Assembly: GCA_963693055.1 (NCBI GenBank)
Contig: OY843751.1
Coordinates: 224,001 to 288,000, forward strand
Direction of reading: 5' to 3'
DNA: 64,000 nt
Source: a bacterium
GTDB taxonomy: Bacteria > Zhuqueibacterota > Zhuqueibacteria > Residuimicrobiales > Krinioviventaceae
Shown in pieces: positions 46,841 to 57,384 of the stretch (position 1 is the first letter of the stretch; each line of letters starts with the position of its first letter). A program made the translations under genes and the position numbers. The notes under the pieces are model-generated. The model worked only from the letters and a program-made list of their open reading frames with translations, was not told the origin of the DNA and ran no database searches.

Positions 46841-49444
46841 CTATTTTTTGATTAACCAGACTTCGGAAGCAATGGTGCCCCAGCCACCTGAATTGCGCCA
46901 CTGTTCTACGGTCACCCGGTCGCCGCGGGCAATGTTGGGTGCGCGTTCCAGACGGATGGTCAGTTCACCATCCTGTATAACGGATTGCGGTATATTGTAA
47001 GTGAAAAAATCGCTCATTTGTAAAGGGATTTCTATATTCTCTGCAAGGAGTTGATCATCCGCGTAAATGCTCTGGCTTTTTTGCACCATACGAAAGGCAT
47101 AGCGCTCCTGGTACCAGGGACGCACAAAGGTAAAGCGGATCTTGTACGATGCCTTGGGATCAAGATCGCGGTATTGCAGGGTTACGCCCTGGTCCTCGTC
47201 CTGAGTAAAATGCATGGAGCGCTGAGAGGGACGGTTGCCCTCGGACAGCATTTGCGGGACGTAGGGTTGTCCATGATCGTACGGATACCCGAATATAACA
47301 TTGGGTGCGGGATTCGCAGTACCGAGATTGTCGTATTGACCGCCTTTGCCCGGATTTTCATAATCTGTGATCATGCTAAGCAGTTCGGATTTCTCTACAC
47401 CTTTGGCAGTTTTTGCGCGCTCAAGCTGACGTTTGTACCATCCCAGCCCGATAAAATCGTGTTCAAGATTAAAATATCCGTCATTGCGCACACCAAACAG
47501 GGCATTGCTCTCTTCACCCAGACGGCCCGCTTCTGTCCGTAGCGCTGCCATTTCAGCTGTCTCTGGCATATCACCAAACCAGGTCAGCATTTTTTCGATT
47601 TCCGTGTTGCTTTGTATGTTGTTGAGTGCGGATTGGGTATGTTGTTCGATTTTTGCCTGTAAATCTATTTGCTGTTGTACCGCCAGCTTGACGTATTTGT
47701 CCAGAGCCGCTTTTTGCATGAATTGGCGCCACAACCAGTTGTTTTGCATCAATGCGTCAGGCATGAGCTCTCCGGCCTGTTTTGTCCATGCATAGCAGGA
47801 ATCGATACCCGTTTTTTCCGTTATGGGCATACCCGGAATTTTTTCCAGATTCTGTTCAAGCTGCAAGATAGCCTTTGCCATGAGCGGTGCCGCCTCGTGA
47901 CCGAACCAGGTGGTGCAGTATTCGTTAACTACCTCCCCAACGGTCATGCGGGGATTCCACAGCAGTCGCTGCCACATCCATTGATTGTAATGGTCATGGT
48001 GACCACTGGAGTGGGTGATATCGCCAACGCCATAGGGCATCAGATCGTTAAAGACACGGTGATAAAAGCGCGGCCAGGCGTAAAAGGTGAGGCGGTTATA
48101 GACCATGGTGAGAAACGGATCGGGCTGGCGCTCGTAAATCTCGTGGCTCCAGTGCGGCGGCAGATCACCGTTCTTGTCCGCCCGCGGATACATCTGGATG
48201 TAGGCATGTTGTGCGTACTTCCAGTGTGTGATTTCGTTGTAGTACATCAGCACATGACGTTTGGGGAGCTGGTGTAAAATCTCTTTGGGGTACAGTCCGT
48301 ACGGCCCAAAACCGGGATAGCGAAACAGGTCCATACGGTGCGTTTGCCGGTGGCCCGGCTGCCAGCTTGTGGCGTCTGATCCGGGACCGTAACCCCAGGC
48401 CCAGAGCCATTCGCGCGGCTCTTCCTGCAGGTAGGCGAATATGGCATTATCATCGGCATTGTCGAATTTCTGGTTGGTGAAATAGACGAGGGTCGTGGGA
48501 TGATATTTGTGAATGATGGCCGCCATCTCTTCCACGGTTTTGATAAAGACACGGCCGTAGGGATCGCATTTGTCGCATTCACAACCACCGCCGTCTCCAC
48601 CGTGGAATTTAATCAGGTCAAAAGTGGGACTGGTTTTAAAATAGTCCTCACATTTTTTCAGCATAAACTCGCGCGCTTCCGGCACCGAGAGACAGACATA
48701 GCCGAGGCGTCCAATGGACTCGGAAGCGTTCCACTCGGGGGGTATATCCCGTCCCGAAGTATTTGCGCCAAAACCACCCTGCGTCATGAGCCCGTAGGAT
48801 TTGATAAAGTCGAACATGGGTCCGGGACCCGTACTGAAAATATTGGCGCCGGCCAGGGCGTAATCGAGAATGATGCGTTGGGTCTCGGCATCGGTCCAGT
48901 CCCGTACATGCGCCAGGCGTTTGGCTACACCGCTCTGGCCATACTGGGTACCGCGGATCTCGAATGCCGGGGCTGTGCGGATATGCAGGTTTTCCGGCAA
49001 AGCCATTGATCCATTACGGATGGTGATCTGGCGAAGGATTTCGCCCACGGCGTACAAACATCCGCGCTCGTCCACGCCCGCGGCAATCAGGGCAGCATGT
49101 TTCGATATATATTGTAATAGAAATCCTTCGGATCCGGGTGCCAAATCGGACAGGGGCCGGATACGCAGATCGTCCATGTATTTACGTATCGCTACATGAC
49201 GCTGCGGCGTACCCAACAGGATGACCAACTCACCGGATTGCGGTGCGGTCTGCTCCGGGGTGATGTTAACGTCCGCAATGCCGGCCTCGGTCAGACGGTC
49301 CTTTAGCAGACGGGTTATGTTTTTCTCGATTTCGCTTGCGGAACTGCCCGATTGGATAGTTATGCGGGTATAGGTTTCTGAATAGAGCAATGTGATTGAT
49401 GTAAAGAGAAAAAGAATGATACTGTTTAAAATACCGGAACGCAT
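46841..49444 (-). CDS. Hypothetical secreted glycoside-hydrolase-like protein, paralogue of downstream gene
   Basis: Signal peptide; EGF.L, G.DERG.LYAVG.ILR, IRGTQ, GDGGGCECDKC. Confidence 0.65.
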   Translation of the reverse strand: MRSGILNSIILFLFTSITLLYSETYTRITIQSGSSASEIEKNITRLLKDRLTEAGIADVNITPEQTAPQSGELVILLGTPQRHVAIRKYMDDLRIRPLSDLAPGSEGFLLQYISKHAALIAAGVDERGCLYAVGEILRQITIRNGSMALPENLHIRTAPAFEIRGTQYGQSGVAKRLAHVRDWTDAETQRIILDYALAGANIFSTGPGPMFDFIKSYGLMTQGGFGANTSGRDIPPEWNASESIGRLGYVCLSVPEAREFMLKKCEDYFKTSPTFDLIKFHGGDGGGCECDKCDPYGRVFIKTVEEMAAIIHKYHPTTLVYFTNQKFDNADDNAIFAYLQEEPREWLWAWGYGPGSDATSWQPGHRQTHRMDLFRYPGFGPYGLYPKEILHQLPKRHVLMYYNEITHWKYAQHAYIQMYPRADKNGDLPPHWSHEIYERQPDPFLTMVYNRLTFYAWPRFYHRVFNDLMPYGVGDITHSSGHHDHYNQWMWQRLLWNPRMTVGEVVNEYCTTWFGHEAAPLMAKAILQLEQNLEKIPGMPITEKTGIDSCYAWTKQAGELMPDALMQNNWLWRQFMQKAALDKYVKLAVQQQIDLQAKIEQHTQSALNNIQSNTEIEKMLTWFGDMPETAEMAALRTEAGRLGEESNALFGVRNDGYFNLEHDFIGLGWYKRQLERAKTAKGVEKSELLSMITDYENPGKGGQYDNLGTANPAPNVIFGYPYDHGQPYVPQMLSEGNRPSQRSMHFTQDEDQGVTLQYRDLDPKASYKIRFTFVRPWYQERYAFRMVQKSQSIYADDQLLAENIEIPLQMSDFFTYNIPQSVIQDGELTIRLERAPNIARGDRVTVEQWRNSGGWGTIASEVWLIKK

Positions 49445-49552
49445 GCCTTGCCCTCAAATTCATGCAGATTTTTTAGTACATAACGTAATCAATTGCCGTG
49501 TGATTGTCAAGTAATCTAGGTACAGAGTTCGCGGCAATGCATTAAATAGTTT

Positions 49553-50230
49553 GTAGGATGCGGCTTGCCGCATCATTTTAAATAAAACAATGTATGATAA
49601 AGATGCGCCGAGGCGCATCCTACTATCTGCTATCCGGAGCCACAAAATTAACCACAGATGAAGGCGGATAAACGCAGATTAAATCCATACACCACTGGTC
49701 GTGTCGGAGAAAAGCGAAGCGGTCTCCGTCATGGGCAATATACCACGGAAAACGCGGAATGACACGGAAATAAGAACGAAACTCATTCCATTTCTGGTTC
49801 CAGTGGCTCTGCCCTGGAACCCAAAAATTAACCACAGATACACACAGATGAACACAGATAAAATCCATACCCTCTGATCGTGAGGAAGAAAAAGGTCGGT
49901 TCCTGCCCTTCGATAAACTCAGGACAAGCTCAGGAACCGTGTGATCCGTCGTTTTGTGACGGATCGTATCGAAGGGCAAAGCCAGGAAGCATTAAACCAC
50001 AAAGACACGGAGAACACAAAGAAAAGCAGCCCACGAAGCACACTAAATGACACGAAAAGGTGAACGTAATTCATTCTATTTCTGGTTCCAGTGGCTCTGC
50101 CCTGGAACTCAAAAAAATTTGACCAGACACGCGCCTATGAACACAGATAAATCCTATACCCCCTGATCGTGACGGAGATAAGCGAAGCGGTCTCCGTCAC
50201 GGGAAGTTTGATTTAATGACCACCACGAAG
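49553..50230. repeat. Composite REP/REPIN-like repeat cluster 1
   Basis: GTAG-type REP pair (49553-49574, 49602-49623); GTTCCAG..CTGGAAC hairpins (49792, 50080); GTGACGGAGA..TCTCCGTCAC hairpins (49698, 50165); triple CCAC/ACAC motifs. Confidence 0.8.
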
Positions 50231-50470
50231 AAAAACAAAATTCAAAAAAGGTATTTTGTTCTTGCATGTTGTAAAATTATTTTGGTTATTATAATATTCA
50301 TGAGGTAAAATTTTGGTGACTAGTAGTGGGTGTTAAGGATATTATATTTTTAGTATTTCTGATTTGATTTAAATATTTGTTATAAGTAATTTTTTGTTGT
50401 ACGAGTTGATACAAGTATATGTACTATATCTTGATTTTTAAATAAAGATTGAATTTGAGTGAATTGTAAA

Positions 50471-51613
50471 ATGGCAGAAAAAATAATTGTAAATTTTGAT
50501 ATACTAAAATGGGCAAGATTAAATTGTGGAAAAACAATTGAGGAAGTAGCTCGCCAAATGGGGAAATCAACTGAAATTATAGAAAATTGGGAAAATGGAA
50601 CAGAAAAGTTAACTTATGCTCAATTAGAAAAATTGGCTTACCAAGTCTATAAGCGCCCATCAGCAATATTTTTCTTCCCAAGCCCACCTGAAGAAGTTGA
50701 TCTTATTAAAGAATTTAGAACTTTACCTGAATATGAACAAAATAATTTACAATTTGATACTAGATTTGCTATTCGAAAAGCAAAAGTTTTACAAATTTCA
50801 TTGTCAGAGTTGAATGATGGAAAGAATCCTTTCAGTAAATGTATTTTTAAAGAATTTGATTTTTCAAATAATTATTATGAATTAGCAAAAAATATTCGTC
50901 ATTATTTAGAAATCGATATTAATGAGCAAAAGTCATTAATTAATCCTGAAGCTGCATTTAAGTATTGGCGTAACGCTATTGAAAATGTAGGCATATATAT
51001 TTTTAAACGTGCTTTTAAACAAAGGGATATATGTGGTTTCTCGTTGATTGATGAGGAATTCCCAATAATTTATGTAAATAACAAAAATACATTTACTAGA
51101 CAAATATTTACTTTGTTCCATGAATTAGCACACATTTTATATAAAGTACCTGGAGTTACTAAATCTAGTAATAAATATATAAAAAATTTAGACTCTGTTC
51201 ATAAAGATATTGAAAGTTGCTGTAATAGTTTTGCTGCTGAATTTCTTGTGCCTGACGAGGATTTTAATAAAATTTTTGATGGTAATATTGCAGATGATTC
51301 AATATCAAATTTATCAGACATATATAAAGTAAGTAGAGAAGTTATTTTAAGAAAAATTTTGGATATTGGTCTTATCAGTTATCAGTATTATGAAATGAAA
51401 GCTGAGGAGTGGTCAAGTCAAAAAAGAAAAGTAACAGGTAAAGGGGGTAATTATTATTTAACACAAATTGCTTACTTGGGTGAGAACTATTTAAATTTAG
51501 CATTTAGTAATTATTATAAAGGGAAATGTTCATTAGACCAATTAGCTGAATATTTTAGTATGAAGGTTACTAGCATAACAAAACTTGAAGATTATTTGAG
51601 TTATTGTCAATAG
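50471..51613 (+). CDS. XRE-HTH / ImmA-IrrE (DUF955) zinc metallopeptidase; extreme C-terminus altered by IS256
   Basis: LKWAR...WENG HTH; RQIFTLFHELAH (HExxH); E..CN.FAAEFL.P; VSREVILR. Confidence 0.88.
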   Translation: MAEKIIVNFDILKWARLNCGKTIEEVARQMGKSTEIIENWENGTEKLTYAQLEKLAYQVYKRPSAIFFFPSPPEEVDLIKEFRTLPEYEQNNLQFDTRFAIRKAKVLQISLSELNDGKNPFSKCIFKEFDFSNNYYELAKNIRHYLEIDINEQKSLINPEAAFKYWRNAIENVGIYIFKRAFKQRDICGFSLIDEEFPIIYVNNKNTFTRQIFTLFHELAHILYKVPGVTKSSNKYIKNLDSVHKDIESCCNSFAAEFLVPDEDFNKIFDGNIADDSISNLSDIYKVSREVILRKILDIGLISYQYYEMKAEEWSSQKRKVTGKGGNYYLTQIAYLGENYLNLAFSNYYKGKCSLDQLAEYFSMKVTSITKLEDYLSYCQ

Positions 51614-53037
51614 TTGTGGATCAAAAAGCGTATCCATTTCATAAAAGTTAAGCTGCCAACTTAAACAATTCCTGATTTTCCGGTTCACCATTCACAAATT
51701 TTTCTCCTTTAATCACAAATGGTATCCACTTGTACCCTCTCAAACGCCGCCACCGTTTTTCCGCTTCTTTAGCCAGTTTAAAAACCATAGTCAAAGTCGC
51801 CTGACTTGAACCGCAGCCCTTTGTTCTCCGCGTCCTGAGTCTCACTGTAGCAAAGGTAGATTCAATGGGATTCGTGGTCCGGATATGCTGCCAATGTGAA
51901 TCCGGGAAATCATAAAAAGTAAAAAGTTGATCATAATCTTTTACCAGACAATTAACAACTTTGGGATACTTGTCTTCATAAATTTTGATAAATCTATGAT
52001 AAGCGATTAACGCATTTTCTTTGGTCTCAGCCATATACATTTCATGAATAAGCGATTTGGCATTTGTCTGCGCACTTTTCGGTAGCTTATCCAATATGTT
52101 GGCTGTCTTGTGGACCCAGCAGCGCTGTTCACGAGACTCGGGATAAACTTGTGGCAAAGCTTTCCAAAAACCGAGGGCACCGTCTGCGATTGCCAGTTTC
52201 GGTCCCATCTCAAGTCCCTGGTCCTTTAACTCCAACAGCAGTTCTTTCCAGCTCAATTCGCTTTCTCGAAAGCCTTCTTTGACCGCCAAAAGCTCTTTTC
52301 GCCCATATTCGTCCGCTCCAATAATCACTAAAATACAAGGATTTACGCCTTTCAATCGAACATTGAAATAGACACCATCGGCCCAGATGTATACATAGTG
52401 TTTGCCGGACAGATCACGCCTGGCCCATTGCTTGTACTCTGACTCCCATTCTTCTTTCAAGCGCACAACCGTGTTGGCTGAAAGTCCTTTGACTTTATCT
52501 CCAAGTATAGCCGACAATGCAGCCGGGAAGTCCTGTGTCGAAATGCCCTTCAAATAAAGGGCAGGTATCAGGTTATTCAGGCTGGGTGTCCGTCTCAGGT
52601 ATTTGGGTAGTATCTCACTTGTAAAGCCTTCTACGCCATGTTCCTGCCGTAATTTCCTGTCATCCACTCGCGGCTGCCGGATCGTTATTGGACCTGAACT
52701 GGACAATATTGTGCGCTCCGGCATGGAACCATTGCGTACGGCCAGGCGGTGACCTTGTTCATCTCTGTGATTTTTATAGCGATCAAGGTATTCCTGAACT
52801 TCGTTTTCTATGGCTGCTGCCAATATTTGTTGCGCTCCATTTCGAATAATTTCATCCAAACTTTTATTGAATGTTGTGGTTTCTGCTTGCAGTTCTGACT
52901 TTGTTGTATTACCTTTTTTCATAGCGTGTCCTTTTTGGTTTTATCTTTTTTCTTGGTCGAAAAAAAATACTTAAAAACTATAGGATACGCTTTTTTATTT
53001 ATTTTTTCAAGTCATCCACAACATTAGAATATAACTC
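51598..53037 (-). mobile_element. IS256-family insertion sequence, 1440 bp, 9-bp target duplication AGATTATTT
   Basis: Imperfect TIRs GAGTTATTGTCAATAGTTGTGGAT and (reverse complement) GAGTTATATTCTAATGTTGTGGAT; AGATTATTT at 51589-51597 and 53038-53046. Confidence 0.93.
51648..52922 (-). CDS. IS256 family transposase
   Basis: VRNG, LY.KGIST, YIWADG, IADGALGF, QRCWVHK, IRTTNPIES.F. Confidence 0.95.
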   Translation of the reverse strand: MKKGNTTKSELQAETTTFNKSLDEIIRNGAQQILAAAIENEVQEYLDRYKNHRDEQGHRLAVRNGSMPERTILSSSGPITIRQPRVDDRKLRQEHGVEGFTSEILPKYLRRTPSLNNLIPALYLKGISTQDFPAALSAILGDKVKGLSANTVVRLKEEWESEYKQWARRDLSGKHYVYIWADGVYFNVRLKGVNPCILVIIGADEYGRKELLAVKEGFRESELSWKELLLELKDQGLEMGPKLAIADGALGFWKALPQVYPESREQRCWVHKTANILDKLPKSAQTNAKSLIHEMYMAETKENALIAYHRFIKIYEDKYPKVVNCLVKDYDQLFTFYDFPDSHWQHIRTTNPIESTFATVRLRTRRTKGCGSSQATLTMVFKLAKEAEKRWRRLRGYKWIPFVIKGEKFVNGEPENQELFKLAA

Positions 53038-53068
53038 AGATTATTTCTATTTAGGGGATAAAAGATAG

Positions 53069-53539
53069 ATGATATATTTGTTTGATACTGTTGTATTTAG
53101 AATGTTTGGAAATTATTTTCCAGATAGATTTCCCTCATTTTGGGATAATTTGGAAAAATCAGTTAATAATATGGAAATTATTTCTGTAAAGGAAGTAATG
53201 AATGAAATTGATATTCAAGCAACGAAGCAATTTGTAAAGAGATGGGTTAGTGAACATAAAAAAATATTTTTTTCACCCACCAATGAGGAAATAAGTTTTA
53301 TAAGGGAACTTTTTAATATTAGTCATTTTCGGCAAATAGTTGGTATAAAACAACGATTGCAAGGTTTCCCTGTAGCTGATCCATATTTGATAGCAAGCGC
53401 AAAAATTAAAGGTGGGTGTATTGTTACTGAAGAAAAAGAAAAAAAGAATGCCGCTAAAATACCAAATCTTTGTAAACATTATTCAGTTGATTGTATAGAT
53501 TTGGAAGAATTTATGAAAAGAAATAACTGGAAATTCTAG
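53069..53539 (+). CDS. DUF4411 family PIN-domain protein
   Basis: YLFDT, F.SFW..L, EV..EI, ADPYLIA.A, IVTEE, KIP..C. Confidence 0.85.
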   Translation: MIYLFDTVVFRMFGNYFPDRFPSFWDNLEKSVNNMEIISVKEVMNEIDIQATKQFVKRWVSEHKKIFFSPTNEEISFIRELFNISHFRQIVGIKQRLQGFPVADPYLIASAKIKGGCIVTEEKEKKNAAKIPNLCKHYSVDCIDLEEFMKRNNWKF

Positions 53540-53614
53540 ATATTACGTCTTTAATTAAATTAGTTTTTTAAAATATTTACTTGAATTTTATGTACGGAAG
53601 AACTTGACAATAAT

Positions 53615-54424
53615 ATGATATGTCAAACTGAATCTCATAAAAGGATAAAAAAAGAACAACAAGAAATATGGGATTTTGCCATATTAATATGTCAATCAGT
53701 TCCAACATTAAAAAAAACTATAAAAGGTTTTGAAGAATCTATACCAAATTATAGTATTCCTAAACCTGATTATTTTATTGAATCAATAGATAAAGATAGA
53801 CTGAAAAGTATTTCTAATAATTACAAGAGCAATCTAGGGAAATATATTATTCTTAGTTTGTTTAGTTTTTTTGAATCATATTTTAAATCCGTAATGATTG
53901 AATTGATTGACTTTCATGGTGGGAAAGATAAGCTAATTGAAAATTTAAAAAAGAAAAATAGTAATTATCTTAATCAAGATGAGTGCAAAATTAAATTTAA
54001 AAGGAAATTACAAGAACCTATTAAAGATCAAAAATTTGAAAAATACAAAAAATATTCAAATTTGTTAATCAAAGAACCATATTTCCGCTTTCCAAGTGAA
54101 CTCTTTGCATTTTATGGATTGCAACGATTTATAGATGATATAATGAGTGATAACTATAGAAGTCAAATGATTCCACATATATTACAAAATGTTTTTTTAA
54201 TGAATTTGAGTCCCCGAATAAATGATTTTAAGGAAATTGAATCTATGGATTTAGCACAAACCTTCGATAGTGTTAGAAAAATACGAAATAAAATTGCACA
54301 TGGTGACAAAATTAATATTTCAATTAAAAAAGTATCAGCTTATTCAGATTTTTTACGAGAGTTTGCAATTCGAATAGATAACCATTTATTAGAGCATTTT
54401 TTTATTATAGAAAAATATATGTAG
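53615..54424 (+). CDS. HEPN-domain protein (putative RNase)
   Basis: SLFSFFESY helix and C-terminal R-x4-H motif RNKIAHG; AT-rich. Confidence 0.75.
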   Translation: MICQTESHKRIKKEQQEIWDFAILICQSVPTLKKTIKGFEESIPNYSIPKPDYFIESIDKDRLKSISNNYKSNLGKYIILSLFSFFESYFKSVMIELIDFHGGKDKLIENLKKKNSNYLNQDECKIKFKRKLQEPIKDQKFEKYKKYSNLLIKEPYFRFPSELFAFYGLQRFIDDIMSDNYRSQMIPHILQNVFLMNLSPRINDFKEIESMDLAQTFDSVRKIRNKIAHGDKINISIKKVSAYSDFLREFAIRIDNHLLEHFFIIEKYM

Positions 54425-54528
54425 TCCATTTGGTCTAACGGTTAAGACGCCCGTTACCCTAAAAATATTAATAATTGTATTTTTGGGAAAACGGGAGATG
54501 GGGTTCGAATCCTCAATGGACTACATAT
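54417..54528 (+). ncRNA. tRNA-like structured element lacking an anticodon loop and CCA
   Basis: 14-bp closing stem ATATGTAGTCCATT/AATGGACTACATAT; D-arm GTCT-AACGGTTA-AGAC; stem CCCGT/ACGGG enclosing a 36-nt hairpin; T-arm GGGG-TTCGAAT-CCTC. Confidence 0.75.
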
Positions 54529-54559
54529 CGTTATAAATTTTTAATTTGGGCAATAGTTC

Positions 54560-55592
54560 GTAGGATACAGCTTGCCGCATCAAAAATAATTAAAAGATGC
54601 GCCGAGGCGCATCCTACTAACTGCTATCTGGAGCCACAAAATTAACCACAGATAAATCCAACAGTGGGCGAATACGCACTGATGAACACAAAGCCCACAC
54701 TCCCAGATCGTGACGGTGAAAGTGTCGGTCCCTGAGTGTTCGCCGAAGGCGAACGTATCGAAGGGCCGACTGAGAGAGATATGTACAAAAAGTACAACAA
54801 AAATCTTTTCGCTTCTGGTTCCAGTGGCTCTGCCCTGGAACCCAAAATTAACCAGACATGCGCAGATAAACGCAGATAAAAAACAAAAGATCGTGACGGA
54901 GATAAGCGAAGCGGTCTCCGTAACGGGAGGAATGAATTGTCCTGTCAGGGACAAGATATTTTTAGCACAAACAAAAAAACAGATTACCATCCCGTAGGGA
55001 TGGGATAGAATAATAGAACTATGATATCGCATCCCTACGGGATGCAGATTGTTGTTTGGGTGTTAACTACAAATATTTCATCCCTAGCGGGATGAATTCT
55101 CGTTATTTTAAACATTCCTGGATTATAATCTTACTTCGTGCCCTTCTTTTCTTCGTGGTTCATTTTTTTAATCTTGTCAGCGACTTATCCCTATAATACC
55201 AAAGCAAAGCTTTTTACCAAATTCCCCACCCAAATGAAATTTGGGCGGGAGTGGATTCATGATCTTATAATCATATCTGCAAAATAGATATCTGCGTTCA
55301 TTTGTGGTTAATTTATCGCTCGACCCTTCGATACGTTCGCCTTCGGCGAACACTCAGGGACCGACTTTTTCTCCGTCACGGTCAGGGGGTATGGATTTGA
55401 TCTGCGTTAATCTGCGCTTATCTGTGGTTCATTATACCTTTGTGAGCTTTGTGGCTTTGTGGTAAATCTTTCATACTACCTTGCTTTCAACGTGACGGAG
55501 ACCGCTTCGCTTAATTCCGTCACGATCAGGTGCTATGGATTTAATCTGCATTCATCTGTGCGTGTTCGCCCACTGGTGAATGTATCTGTGGT
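54560..55592. repeat. Composite REP/REPIN-like repeat cluster 2 (direct copy of cluster 1 modules plus an inverted half)
   Basis: Same GTAG REP pair at 54560-54616; GTTCCAG hairpin 54813; GTGACGGAG hairpins 54889 and 55491 (inverted); perfect 42-bp inverted repeat 54724-54765/55324-55365; CATCCC..GGGATG palindromes 54988, 55030, 55079. Confidence 0.8.
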
Positions 55593-55683
55593 AAATAATT
55601 CTAACCAACATTTTCTGCTTGCATCTCAACCGTGAAATCAGGTTATTATAACCAGAAATTTATCCAACCCAACGGGAGCAAGC

Positions 55684-57384
55684 ATGTTTAAGCAAAAAGA
55701 GATTTTCTTCATCCTGATCACAGTATTGATTTACGGCATCGCCCACAGCCAGACCAGCACCATCTATCATCTGGACCGGACCATCGGATTTGAATCCGAG
55801 TTTCCGCAATCCGAATGGGACGTTAAACGCCAATCCGGCAGGATCATTGGCGCTGAACCGGCCCTGTTTCTGGATGATACCTTTATCATGGGCAGCCGAA
55901 ATGTGAAACGCACATTGCATGCAGTGAACAAATACTCTGAACCGATGATTTTACCCGTTTCCGAAAAGCTGATGAAATCCCCTACAATCTTTTCCATTGT
56001 TCCCGATGCGGATGACAAGGGCTATATTGCCTATTGTGGGGGCGCATTTGAAAAGAAAACCTTGTACTCGGTTTTTCATACCACAGACGGCAAGTCATTT
56101 ACGCCCATCATAACCGACCAGCTCCCGTCCGAAGAGATTTGGGATGGACTCGATAAAGGGGACATTCCTGAGCATAATAATATTTTAAATTTAAACAAAT
56201 TCAACGGCGAGGCATTTACTTCGTATTACTCGGCGTTTTTCAAAGTACAGGAAGAAACCAGGTATCCCTATCGGGCCATCATCATTCGTTCCAAACCGCG
56301 TCCCCGGCAGGTTATGATCATCCAGTCCCAAGATGGATTAAACTGGCAGGCCATGCCCAACCAGACACAGCGGGATATACTGGGTGAAGCCAATCAACCC
56401 GCGTACGATCCCTTTCACGACCGCTATCTCTGCTACCTGCGCCTGTGGGATCCGCCCTCCAAGATCGTTTCGAGTTGGCGAAAGGTGCTGTTTAGTGAAG
56501 CTTCCTTTGGTCCGGACGGAGCGACATGGTCTGATGATGAGCTGGTACTGGAAGCTGGCCCCCAGGACGGTCCGTCAACGGACATTTATTTCATGCAGGT
56601 GACCGGTTACGCGGGCGGATATATTGGGATCCCGGTCATGTATCATCGTCCTTCTTCACTGGACCCTGAAATGGCGGGAAAGTTTCATTGCGAACTCGCT
56701 TTTAGCCATGACGGCCGCAATTGGGACCGGGTTTGTCAGGGTGAACCGTTCCTGTCAACCGGCCCCAAAAACAGTTGGGATGCGGGACTGGTCTGGATGA
56801 ATTGTCCGCCAATCGTCAAAAACGACAGTCTCTATTTTTACTACACCGGTAGAAAATACGATCATGATGAGATCAAACCGCGGGACCACAAAGTACAAGC
56901 CGGGTTGGCAACCCTTCGAGCGGACGGATTTGTCTCTATGGACGCGGGAGAGGAAACCGGAACCCTGCTGACGACCCTGTTCTGGCCGGAGGGTAAACAT
57001 TTGTATATTAACGCGGATGCCAGCGGAGGAGAAATCCGCGTAGAGGTATTGCAGGACTATCATTATGTGGAATTGAAAAAAGTGGAAAAGTATTCTGAGG
57101 ATATTCAAGGACTGTTTCGTGCGGAGAATTGTATTCCTTTTACCAGTAATGCTATTAATCACAAGGTAGCCTGGAAACATGATGAGAATTTTGTGGAAAA
57201 TTTCCCTCAAAACTGGTTGGATTTGGAGGATTCTGATAAATACAGTAAAAAGAAAAAGCCCTTTGAAAAAAGGGCCATTGCATTAAAGTTTTATCTGAAA
57301 AATGCAAAACTGTACAGTTTCTGGTTTGCTGATGATGATACCGAACCGCTGGAAAACGGACGGTTGGTACCGGTATCGAAATGA
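55684..57384 (+). CDS. Putative secreted beta-propeller glycoside hydrolase (GH32/43/130-like fold)
   Basis: Signal peptide; LFLDD, SQDGLNW, SHDGRNW, WDAG, LRADGFVS, LYSFWF. Confidence 0.7.
   Translation: MFKQKEIFFILITVLIYGIAHSQTSTIYHLDRTIGFESEFPQSEWDVKRQSGRIIGAEPALFLDDTFIMGSRNVKRTLHAVNKYSEPMILPVSEKLMKSPTIFSIVPDADDKGYIAYCGGAFEKKTLYSVFHTTDGKSFTPIITDQLPSEEIWDGLDKGDIPEHNNILNLNKFNGEAFTSYYSAFFKVQEETRYPYRAIIIRSKPRPRQVMIIQSQDGLNWQAMPNQTQRDILGEANQPAYDPFHDRYLCYLRLWDPPSKIVSSWRKVLFSEASFGPDGATWSDDELVLEAGPQDGPSTDIYFMQVTGYAGGYIGIPVMYHRPSSLDPEMAGKFHCELAFSHDGRNWDRVCQGEPFLSTGPKNSWDAGLVWMNCPPIVKNDSLYFYYTGRKYDHDEIKPRDHKVQAGLATLRADGFVSMDAGEETGTLLTTLFWPEGKHLYINADASGGEIRVEVLQDYHYVELKKVEKYSEDIQGLFRAENCIPFTSNAINHKVAWKHDENFVENFPQNWLDLEDSDKYSKKKKPFEKRAIALKFYLKNAKLYSFWFADDDTEPLENGRLVPVSK

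Follow-up and report, generated by a model that had tools for sequence, protein, structure and literature searches.

A tRNA-shaped RNA inherited together with a predicted HEPN ribonuclease gene, beside a separate peptidase-PIN pair in an AT-rich bacterial islet

The 64,000 nt stretch of contig OY843751.1 analysed here (positions 224,001 to 288,000 of the forward strand, assembly GCA_963693055.1; hereafter the window) contains an AT-rich islet in which a gene for a predicted HEPN ribonuclease (RNase) is followed directly by a tRNA-shaped RNA (Table 1). Upstream of this pair lie a gene for an Xre-type ImmA/IrrE peptidase and one for a DUF4411 protein, now separated by an insertion sequence (IS) on the opposite strand. 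An initial annotation had read peptidase, PIN protein, HEPN protein and RNA as one four-part system, and had allowed that the HEPN gene and the RNA might instead be a cassette of their own. Every element that it listed was recovered in place from the open reading frames (ORFs), the Pfam and Rfam matches and the boundaries of the IS. The region nonetheless consists of two separate modules, one of which, the HEPN gene with its RNA, is co-inherited across phyla in three different arrangements.

Table 1. Features of the islet, in coordinates of the window.
Feature	Position	Strand	Basis and remarks
AT-rich islet holding both modules	50317..54639		Composition; DNA comparison with same-genus genome G085
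Xre-type HTH_3 + ImmA/IrrE Peptidase_M78 gene	50459..51613	+	Pfam 66.9 bits; HExxH motif present
IS256-family IS, 1440 bp	51598..53037	-	Ends defined by 5 genomic copies
Mutator/IS256 transposase	51648-52922	-	Pfam 218.9 bits; NCBIfam IS256 equivalog 309 bits
DUF4411 (VapC-like PIN) gene, full length	53069..53539	+	Pfam 114.4 bits, 5.9e-33, profile 1-159 of 159
Predicted HEPN RNase gene, RiboL-PSP type (PF18735), 269 aa	53615..54424	+	Pfam 50 bits, cut-off 28.4, residues 61-259
tRNA-shaped RNA: acceptor, D and T arms, 4-nt variable loop	~54423..54522	+	Rfam tRNA; model R1
Extended 'anticodon' arm of the RNA	54450..54495	+	5-6 bp stem, small internal loop, ~11 more pairs, 8-nt apical loop

Compared with a canonical tRNA (RF00005), the RNA keeps the three arms, the short variable loop and the elbow nucleotides, and its score of 44.3 bits at 54424-54522 exceeds the gathering score of 29. 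It differs in having no 7-nt anticodon loop, no conserved anticodon and no encoded CCA; in the window a hairpin of 35-36 nt occupies the place of six anticodon-loop positions of the model, and there is one base fewer than in a canonical tRNA at the junction of the T stem and the acceptor stem. The 5′ end of the RNA falls inside the TAG stop codon of the HEPN gene (54422-54424). Its minimum free energy is -42.4 kcal/mol, against -24.3 ± 3.1 kcal/mol for shuffled sequences (z = -5.8; 0 of 200 shuffles fold as well), and the extended arm on its own reaches z = -6.8.

At its default settings ARAGORN calls no tRNA anywhere in the window; with introns allowed, it calls the element 'tRNA-Pro(ggg) with a 27-nt intron'. 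The 'anticodons' assigned in this way vary among related loci (Met, Phe, Gly, Glu, Arg, Ser, Ile and others), and decoding identity is therefore not conserved. The same setting also produced an 89-nt-intron 'tRNA-Phe' elsewhere in the genome (6491086-6491269), which was rejected because its fold is not tRNA-like. In the same genome (C1) it further called tRNA-His, tRNA-Ser and tRNA-Val with inserts of 1.4-2.4 kb (2874675-2877197, 4089839-4091378 and 4428414-4429890), which may be artefactual or may reflect tRNA genes disrupted by mobile elements.

A covariance model, R1, was built from 19 sequences that intron-allowed ARAGORN had flagged beside HEPN relatives; it matches the window at 80.2 bits over 54418-54528, flanks included. 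In an alignment of 26 sequences, whose fitting to R1 favours structure somewhat, 87.5% of cells pair, compared with 62.5% in shuffled alignments and 43-60% in controls with slid partners. Double-sided changes occur in 151 cells against 52.6 in shuffles, and none of 500 shuffles reaches the observed value. Covariation is present in all four helices; the acceptor stem pairs least well (78.6%), since a one-base difference separates two subgroups at its junction with the T stem. These compensatory changes show that the fold of the RNA is under selection. The elbow nucleotides U8, A14, G18, G19, G53, T54, T55, C56, A58 and C61 are each kept in 22-26 of the 26 sequences, and the discriminator base is A in 20.

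The insert enclosed by the five anticodon-stem pairs ranges from 24 to 55 nt. In single-sequence folds it forms one long irregular hairpin with a tip of 3-8 nt in 23 of the 26 sequences, and the arm is more stable than its shuffles in all but one of them (z < -2 in 25/26, median -5.9). The arms of nine sequences failed to align with MAFFT, and RNAalifold found no consensus among them. Across 49400-55700, cmscan at E ≤ 10 matched the element to tRNA only, leaving RF02924, RF02926, RF03030 and RF03085 unmatched, and no family in Rfam 15 other than tRNA itself covers the RNA. With default filters Rfam flags just two of 13 related copies, both as tRNA, which is the only family to pass the gathering threshold. 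Annotation pipelines would thus mostly overlook this RNA.

The association of the RNA with the HEPN gene was scored at 88 loci, 18 from species genomes and 70 from metagenomes. R1 places the RNA beside a HEPN relative in 29 of them, whereas ordinary tRNAs elsewhere in the same loci score at most 42.4 bits. The RNA lies downstream on the same strand in 21 of the 29, a count in which one locus (L001) is present twice through its duplicate L020. In six (L007, L009, L041, L049, L051 and L053) it is encoded upstream on the other strand, at a distance of 42-302 nt from the start codon; in L018 it is upstream on the same strand, and L030 has a copy on either side of the gene. A further case, L121, was independent of model building: the only new strong HEPN match among 401 genomes of the family to which the genome of L002 belongs, it has an RNA that ends 9 nt before the HEPN start. 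Judged from record titles, the named hosts of RNA-bearing loci belong to Bacteroidota, Spirochaetota, Pseudomonadota and Cyanobacteriota, and the phylum of the window is a fifth.

Two loci carry more than one such element. In L001 (5833-5985) and its duplicate, another tRNA-shaped element, larger than the first, stands 17 nt upstream of the HEPN start (acceptor, D and T arms, insert of ~85 nt; R1 26 bits), so that the gene is flanked by two mimics. In L030 (2280-3322), a HEPN relative with an in-frame stop lies between two different tRNA-like elements, the upstream one with an arm that no longer folds; this may be a decaying cassette.

When the RNA is downstream on the same strand, its position is tightly constrained. 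In 15 of 19 such rows the acceptor stem starts between -1 and +6 nt relative to the final base of the stop codon, which leaves no space for a separate promoter. A scan of the AT-rich DNA for promoters and terminators was uninformative, with 21 promoter-like sites where 20.0 are expected.

Among full-length HEPN rows with enough flank, 25 of 60 have the RNA, including all ten of the clade to which the window belongs. In a quick maximum-likelihood tree of 68 near-full-length rows, the RNA-bearing sequences fall in that clade and at least four others, interleaved with clades that lack it. The association is also exclusive. When R1 was run over six whole genomes (those of the window, L001, L002, L004, L007 and L009), every match longer than 100 nt adjoined a HEPN gene, with one strong long match per genome and a weak second copy in that of L001; the remaining matches, at 73-95 nt and up to 49.8 bits, are as expected of ordinary tRNAs. 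Across 151 genomes of the window's phylum, the sole long match at E ≤ 1e-12 is the one in the window. This recurrence and exclusivity strongly support the alternative that the initial annotation had kept in reserve, an independent cassette of HEPN gene and RNA.

The examined relatives of the HEPN protein likewise match PF18735. An R-N-x3-H motif (R224, N225, H229) is invariant across 24 aligned relatives and fits the HEPN Rx4-6H motif, which predicts nuclease activity. The AlphaFold2 (AF2) model has a predicted local distance difference test score (pLDDT) of 89. In an exhaustive structural alignment with VIA-align, ten of the top 11 matches are HEPN domains or HEPN toxins (Z 8.7-9.9), among them 4nqf, SO_3166 (5yep), an AMPylated HEPN toxin (8xdj), HEPN-MNT (7ae2) and the AbiA HEPN domain; the other, 1jog, is titled only as the substrate-binding domain of a nucleotidyltransferase, and HepS (9oik) comes next at Z 7.4. 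Since Z values of this size are common among helical bundles, these matches support the HEPN fold only. Foldseek with the same model returned nothing from the PDB at E ≤ 0.001, and a sequence search against PDB chains gave nothing meaningful. A match to Abi_2 (21.6 bits) falls below its cut-off of 25.6.

The HEPN family is small, with 33 clusters at near-query length among 5.8 billion and 284 representatives at E ≤ 0.001 among 1.84 billion. Within the phylum of the window it occurs in one of 167 genomes, that of the window itself. The viral collection yielded one contig with a HEPN relative, the RNA not being beside the gene, and the plasmid and phage collections yielded no matches. One distant relative (L016, 2780-4924; 714 aa) carries a CHASE2 sensor domain at its N terminus and lacks an RNA partner, which suggests that a signal-sensing domain takes over control in other branches of the family. 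At the cyanobacterial locus L009 (6927-7319), and at no other of 16 RNA-bearing loci, a gene for an endoribonuclease L-PSP (RidA-type) stands directly 3′ of the HEPN gene; adjacency of this kind is the source of the Pfam family name.

The closest precedents are systems in which a structured noncoding RNA accompanies a toxic RNase. In the passages of a recent preprint that treat AbiF (10.1101/2025.04.15.648962), this HEPN toxin is neutralised in cis and in trans by an adjacent noncoding RNA that binds it directly, in the manner of a type III system. As in AbiF/RCd22 (RF03085) and ToxIN, a conserved structured RNA lies beside the HEPN or endoribonuclease gene in the window, is probably co-transcribed with it and is inherited along with it. 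The AbiF and ToxIN RNAs, however, are made up of short hairpin motifs in repeated copies, encoded ahead of the toxin gene and separated from it by a terminator, while the RNA described here is a single full cloverleaf with a long arm, has no tandem repeats and usually sits downstream, touching the stop codon. The proteins differ too, AbiF belonging to the Abi_2 family and the HEPN protein of the window to PF18735; the abiF motif was, as noted, among the unmatched Rfam families.

Other comparisons are more distant. The tRNA-like RNAs tLRNA-1 to -3 (skipping-rope, RF02924; DUF2693-FD, RF02926; salivarius-1, RF03030) differ from a cloverleaf in connectivity, whereas the RNA of the window is a plain cloverleaf, and the preprint on them makes no mention of HEPN, toxin or antitoxin. 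PrrC, RloC and HepS are HEPN nucleases that cut tRNA. In HepT-MntA a HEPN toxin is held by a protein partner, with the same logic of an RNase that stays latent until infection. HEPN-MNT and HepS are both among the structural matches of the HEPN model, whose Z values, with SO_3166 and the AMPylated toxin included, span 7.4-9.9. Unlike HepT-MntA, the family in the window has no MNT or other conserved protein partner alongside; its partner is an RNA. We found no published description of the RNA or of its pairing with a HEPN gene in a literature search that covered neither subscription-only papers nor bioRxiv supplements. The pair would be a new example of an RNA-partnered HEPN nuclease.

Our favoured reading, which we hold at roughly even confidence, is that the RNA is the RNase's own antitoxin or regulator, the two forming a type III-like pair separate from the peptidase and PIN genes. 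The most plausible role would be that of a tRNA-like decoy or regulator of a tRNA-directed nuclease, serving the HEPN protein rather than the PIN protein. Where it lies downstream of the gene, the RNA would be co-transcribed with the HEPN mRNA, and RNase P and the 3′-end processing enzymes would excise it as they do a tRNA; in the window, a cut by RNase P inside the stop codon would deprive the HEPN mRNA of its 3′ untranslated region. The excised RNA would then accumulate as a stable L-shaped molecule and could fill the tRNA-binding site of a HEPN dimer, mimicking the substrate while resisting cleavage. A halt in transcription or destruction of the RNA, for instance on phage infection, would free the RNase, which would cleave cellular RNA, probably in tRNA anticodon loops, and arrest growth. 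Antisense control was also considered and rejected: across 25 loci, pairing of the arm with the translation start of the HEPN gene has the same mean energy for cognate (-11.79 kcal/mol) and non-cognate (-11.81 kcal/mol) combinations.

Several points weigh against this reading. RNA is lacking beside 35 of the 60 evaluable full-length HEPN relatives; at eight RNA-less loci a search without filters found no tRNA-like match near the gene, and no conserved small ORF was found to take the place of the RNA at RNA-less loci. A replacement protein partner was likewise rejected, as the sole resemblance linked ORFs in overlapping frames at two near-identical loci. The RNase can therefore exist without the RNA, which weakens the case for a strict dependence of toxin on antitoxin. 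Around the HEPN gene there is no repeat array, the RNA being a single cloverleaf unit unlike the classic type III antitoxins. PADLOC has no model for the HEPN family, giving just two weak and unrelated domain matches, and the family's near absence from phage and plasmid collections means that a role in defence can only be presumed. The toxicity of the HEPN protein, its tRNA target, the binding of RNA to protein and the processing by RNase P are likewise things that we infer.

A more specific form of the antitoxin reading is put forward tentatively, with distinctly less confidence than the general one. The RNA may represent a new kind of RNA antitoxin, a dedicated tRNA mimic that, its anticodon loop being sealed into a helix, plugs the substrate site of a tRNA-cutting HEPN nuclease and escapes cleavage itself, and that also recruits RNase P through its tRNA shape to cut the toxin mRNA at its stop codon.

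Alternatively, the RNA could be a required cofactor or sensor, with a HEPN-RNA particle as the active form; the L-shaped RNA would dock the particle to the tRNA-handling machinery or, in a variant, act as a lure for phage enzymes of tRNA modification, cleavage or repair. We consider this unlikely, yet it is the strongest of the competing explanations. Co-inheritance and exclusivity would serve it equally well, and clades that have an intact catalytic motif and no RNA are easier to accept if the free protein is harmless. There are also tRNA mimics that act through a protein partner, such as the bacterial Y RNA with Rsr. On the other hand, the arm is sealed, and it offers no conserved variable single-stranded segment resembling a target site. 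Degraded HEPN genes that have retained the RNA (L018, a fragment; L030, with an internal stop; L045, with an internal stop and an RNA match cut by the contig end) are at least as compatible with an antidote surviving its toxin.

Less probable again, and in our view improbable, is that the tRNA shape is a cis-acting processing signal only, such that the RNase P site determines where the HEPN mRNA ends, how stable it is or how it is translated, and the released RNA has no further role. MALAT1/mascRNA, which reportedly carries a tRNA-like 3′ processing signal of this sort, would be the model. The close spacing between stop codon and acceptor stem (-1 to +6 nt in 15/19), which in the window becomes an overlap, is what this explanation would lead one to expect. 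Nevertheless, an RNA that lies upstream of the gene, whether on the opposite strand as at six loci or on the same strand as at L018, L030 and L121, cannot define the 3′ end of its mRNA. Acceptor and T arms would moreover suffice for such a signal, yet the D arm, the elbow nucleotides and the long stable arm are all conserved.

It is very improbable that the element is a normal tRNA gene interrupted by a short intron, a tRNA pseudogene in decay or an island end derived from a tRNA, functionally unrelated to the HEPN gene: it does pass the Rfam tRNA threshold, is called a tRNA by intron-allowed ARAGORN and lies ~110 nt from the right end of the islet, but the inconsistent 'anticodons', the sealed helical arm and the compensatory changes contradict this, as do the way in which the RNA tracks the HEPN gene through several phyla and three arrangements, and the absence of an integrase from the islet in both the ORF listing and the Pfam search.

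The remaining proposal, that peptidase, PIN, HEPN and RNA cooperate as one tRNA-targeting abortive-infection system, is contradicted by counts of co-occurrence. The HEPN homologues do occur with the RNA, as described above, but not with the other two components: DUF4411 was found at none of 38 loci of HEPN relatives, and M78 at one. At 16 RNA-bearing loci neither was found among 93 ORFs of at least 90 aa within ~2.8 kb. The neighbours there are mixed, including an OLD-type ATPase, ResIII-Mrr, DNA methylases, type I restriction subunits, TIR, Nmad2/3, a DEAD-MZB helicase, RhuM, a telomere resolvase and ordinary housekeeping genes; about half of these loci adjoin restriction, other defence or mobile-element genes. 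The RNA-less sample comprised 22 loci, for which the nearest 53 of 122 ORFs were scanned after five duplicate loci had been dropped; it contributed no DUF4411 and the single M78 gene. The latter is at L028 (4110-6735), where an Xre-M78 gene and an overlapping 224-aa gene of no known family precede an RNA-less RiboL-PSP HEPN relative. The arrangement recalls the window, but only superficially, as the 224-aa partner is unrelated to DUF4411.

Seen from the other side, 21 of 167 genomes in the window's phylum contain DUF4411, and at all 16 loci with full-length matches in other genomes an M78 gene stands directly upstream. These loci include one DUF4411 gene with an internal stop, one apparently split peptidase and two peptidases truncated at contig ends. 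All 16 lack a neighbouring HEPN_RiboL-PSP gene, and all lack a tRNA-like match even with filters off. At four of them (L089, L091, L092 and L093) the M78-DUF4411 pair sits inside a type I restriction-modification operon, between subunit genes and beside HsdS or HsdR. Despite the co-orientation of all components within a single islet, and despite the distant parallel at L028, a joint system is thus scarcely credible, as each pair is complete by itself in many genomes.

The peptidase-PIN pair is already known. In passages of Matelska et al. (2017; PMC5499597), DUF4411.1 encoded behind fused HTH-DUF955 genes is given as a predicted toxin-antitoxin, and if the IS and its 9-bp duplication are left aside, the layout in the window is identical to that described there; in the window, the pair is split by an IS256-family element that has replaced the last codons of the peptidase gene. 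DUF4411 is accordingly the predicted toxin partner of the peptidase. The latter resembles a transcriptional regulator in PHROG (2439, 2.5e-52), and in PADLOC it matches the models of both the RosmerTA antitoxin RmrA (8e-20; best 8.1e-20) and CapP (capP, 1e-19). Neither the DUF4411 nor the HEPN protein matches any model of the RosmerTA toxin RmrT, and the DUF4411 protein matches no PADLOC family at all, so that it has no toxin model there. This pair was merely acquired in the same islet as the HEPN gene and its RNA.

The islet itself is foreign DNA, acquired horizontally. Its G+C content is 24-30%, against 45-55% in the flanks, and the same-genus genome G085, collinear on both sides at 86-97% identity, has no counterpart to it. 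The syntenic site there holds only the repeat array that also borders the islet in the window, and neither a DUF4411 nor a HEPN gene was detected in that genome. The bordering arrays (49540-50316 and 54556-55640) consist of short palindromic repeats, for example a GC-rich hairpin around 'gatgcgccgaggcgcatc' and another around 'gtgacggag...ctccgtcac'. As these units match scores of places in the same-genus genome, they belong to a genome-wide family of repeats like repetitive extragenic palindromic (REP) elements, and the islet is located within one such array.

Without the IS, the islet measures ~2.9 kb and carries peptidase, PIN, HEPN and RNA in the same orientation. The IS has imperfect terminal inverted repeats and is flanked by a 9-bp target duplication, seen on inspection at 51589-51597 and 53038-53046. 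Five copies that are 99.7-100% identical are present in the 6.5-Mb genome, which points to recent activity of this element. It inserted into the final codons of the peptidase gene, where the last four codons and the stop of the current ORF are derived from it. If the IS and one of the duplicates are taken out, the peptidase frame gains six codons and ends at a TAG (53066-53068) that touches the DUF4411 ATG at 53069. The initial annotation was exact on this point, having stated that the two genes abut, and equally in the 75 nt that it gave between the DUF4411 and HEPN genes. The IS now uncouples the gene of the predicted antitoxin or regulator from that of the predicted toxin.

HEPN RNases are the effectors of Cas13, Csm6 and many abortive-infection (Abi) and toxin-antitoxin systems, and how they are silenced is a central question. 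AbiF is one HEPN family recently shown to be restrained by an RNA. If the RNA described here is indeed an antitoxin or regulator, a second and unrelated HEPN family would be restrained in this way, which would mean that HEPN nucleases came under the control of an RNA on more than one occasion. A partner that mimics tRNA would also point directly to tRNA as the substrate of the nuclease, and would extend the short list of bacterial tRNA mimics by one that is a full cloverleaf and has a protein partner. Because the pair is self-contained within ~0.9 kb, the hypothesis is easy to test. Should the more specific form also hold, one fold would both mature the antidote and limit the toxin, and the tRNA-processing machinery of the host would be part of a toxin-antitoxin or abortive-infection switch in at least five phyla.

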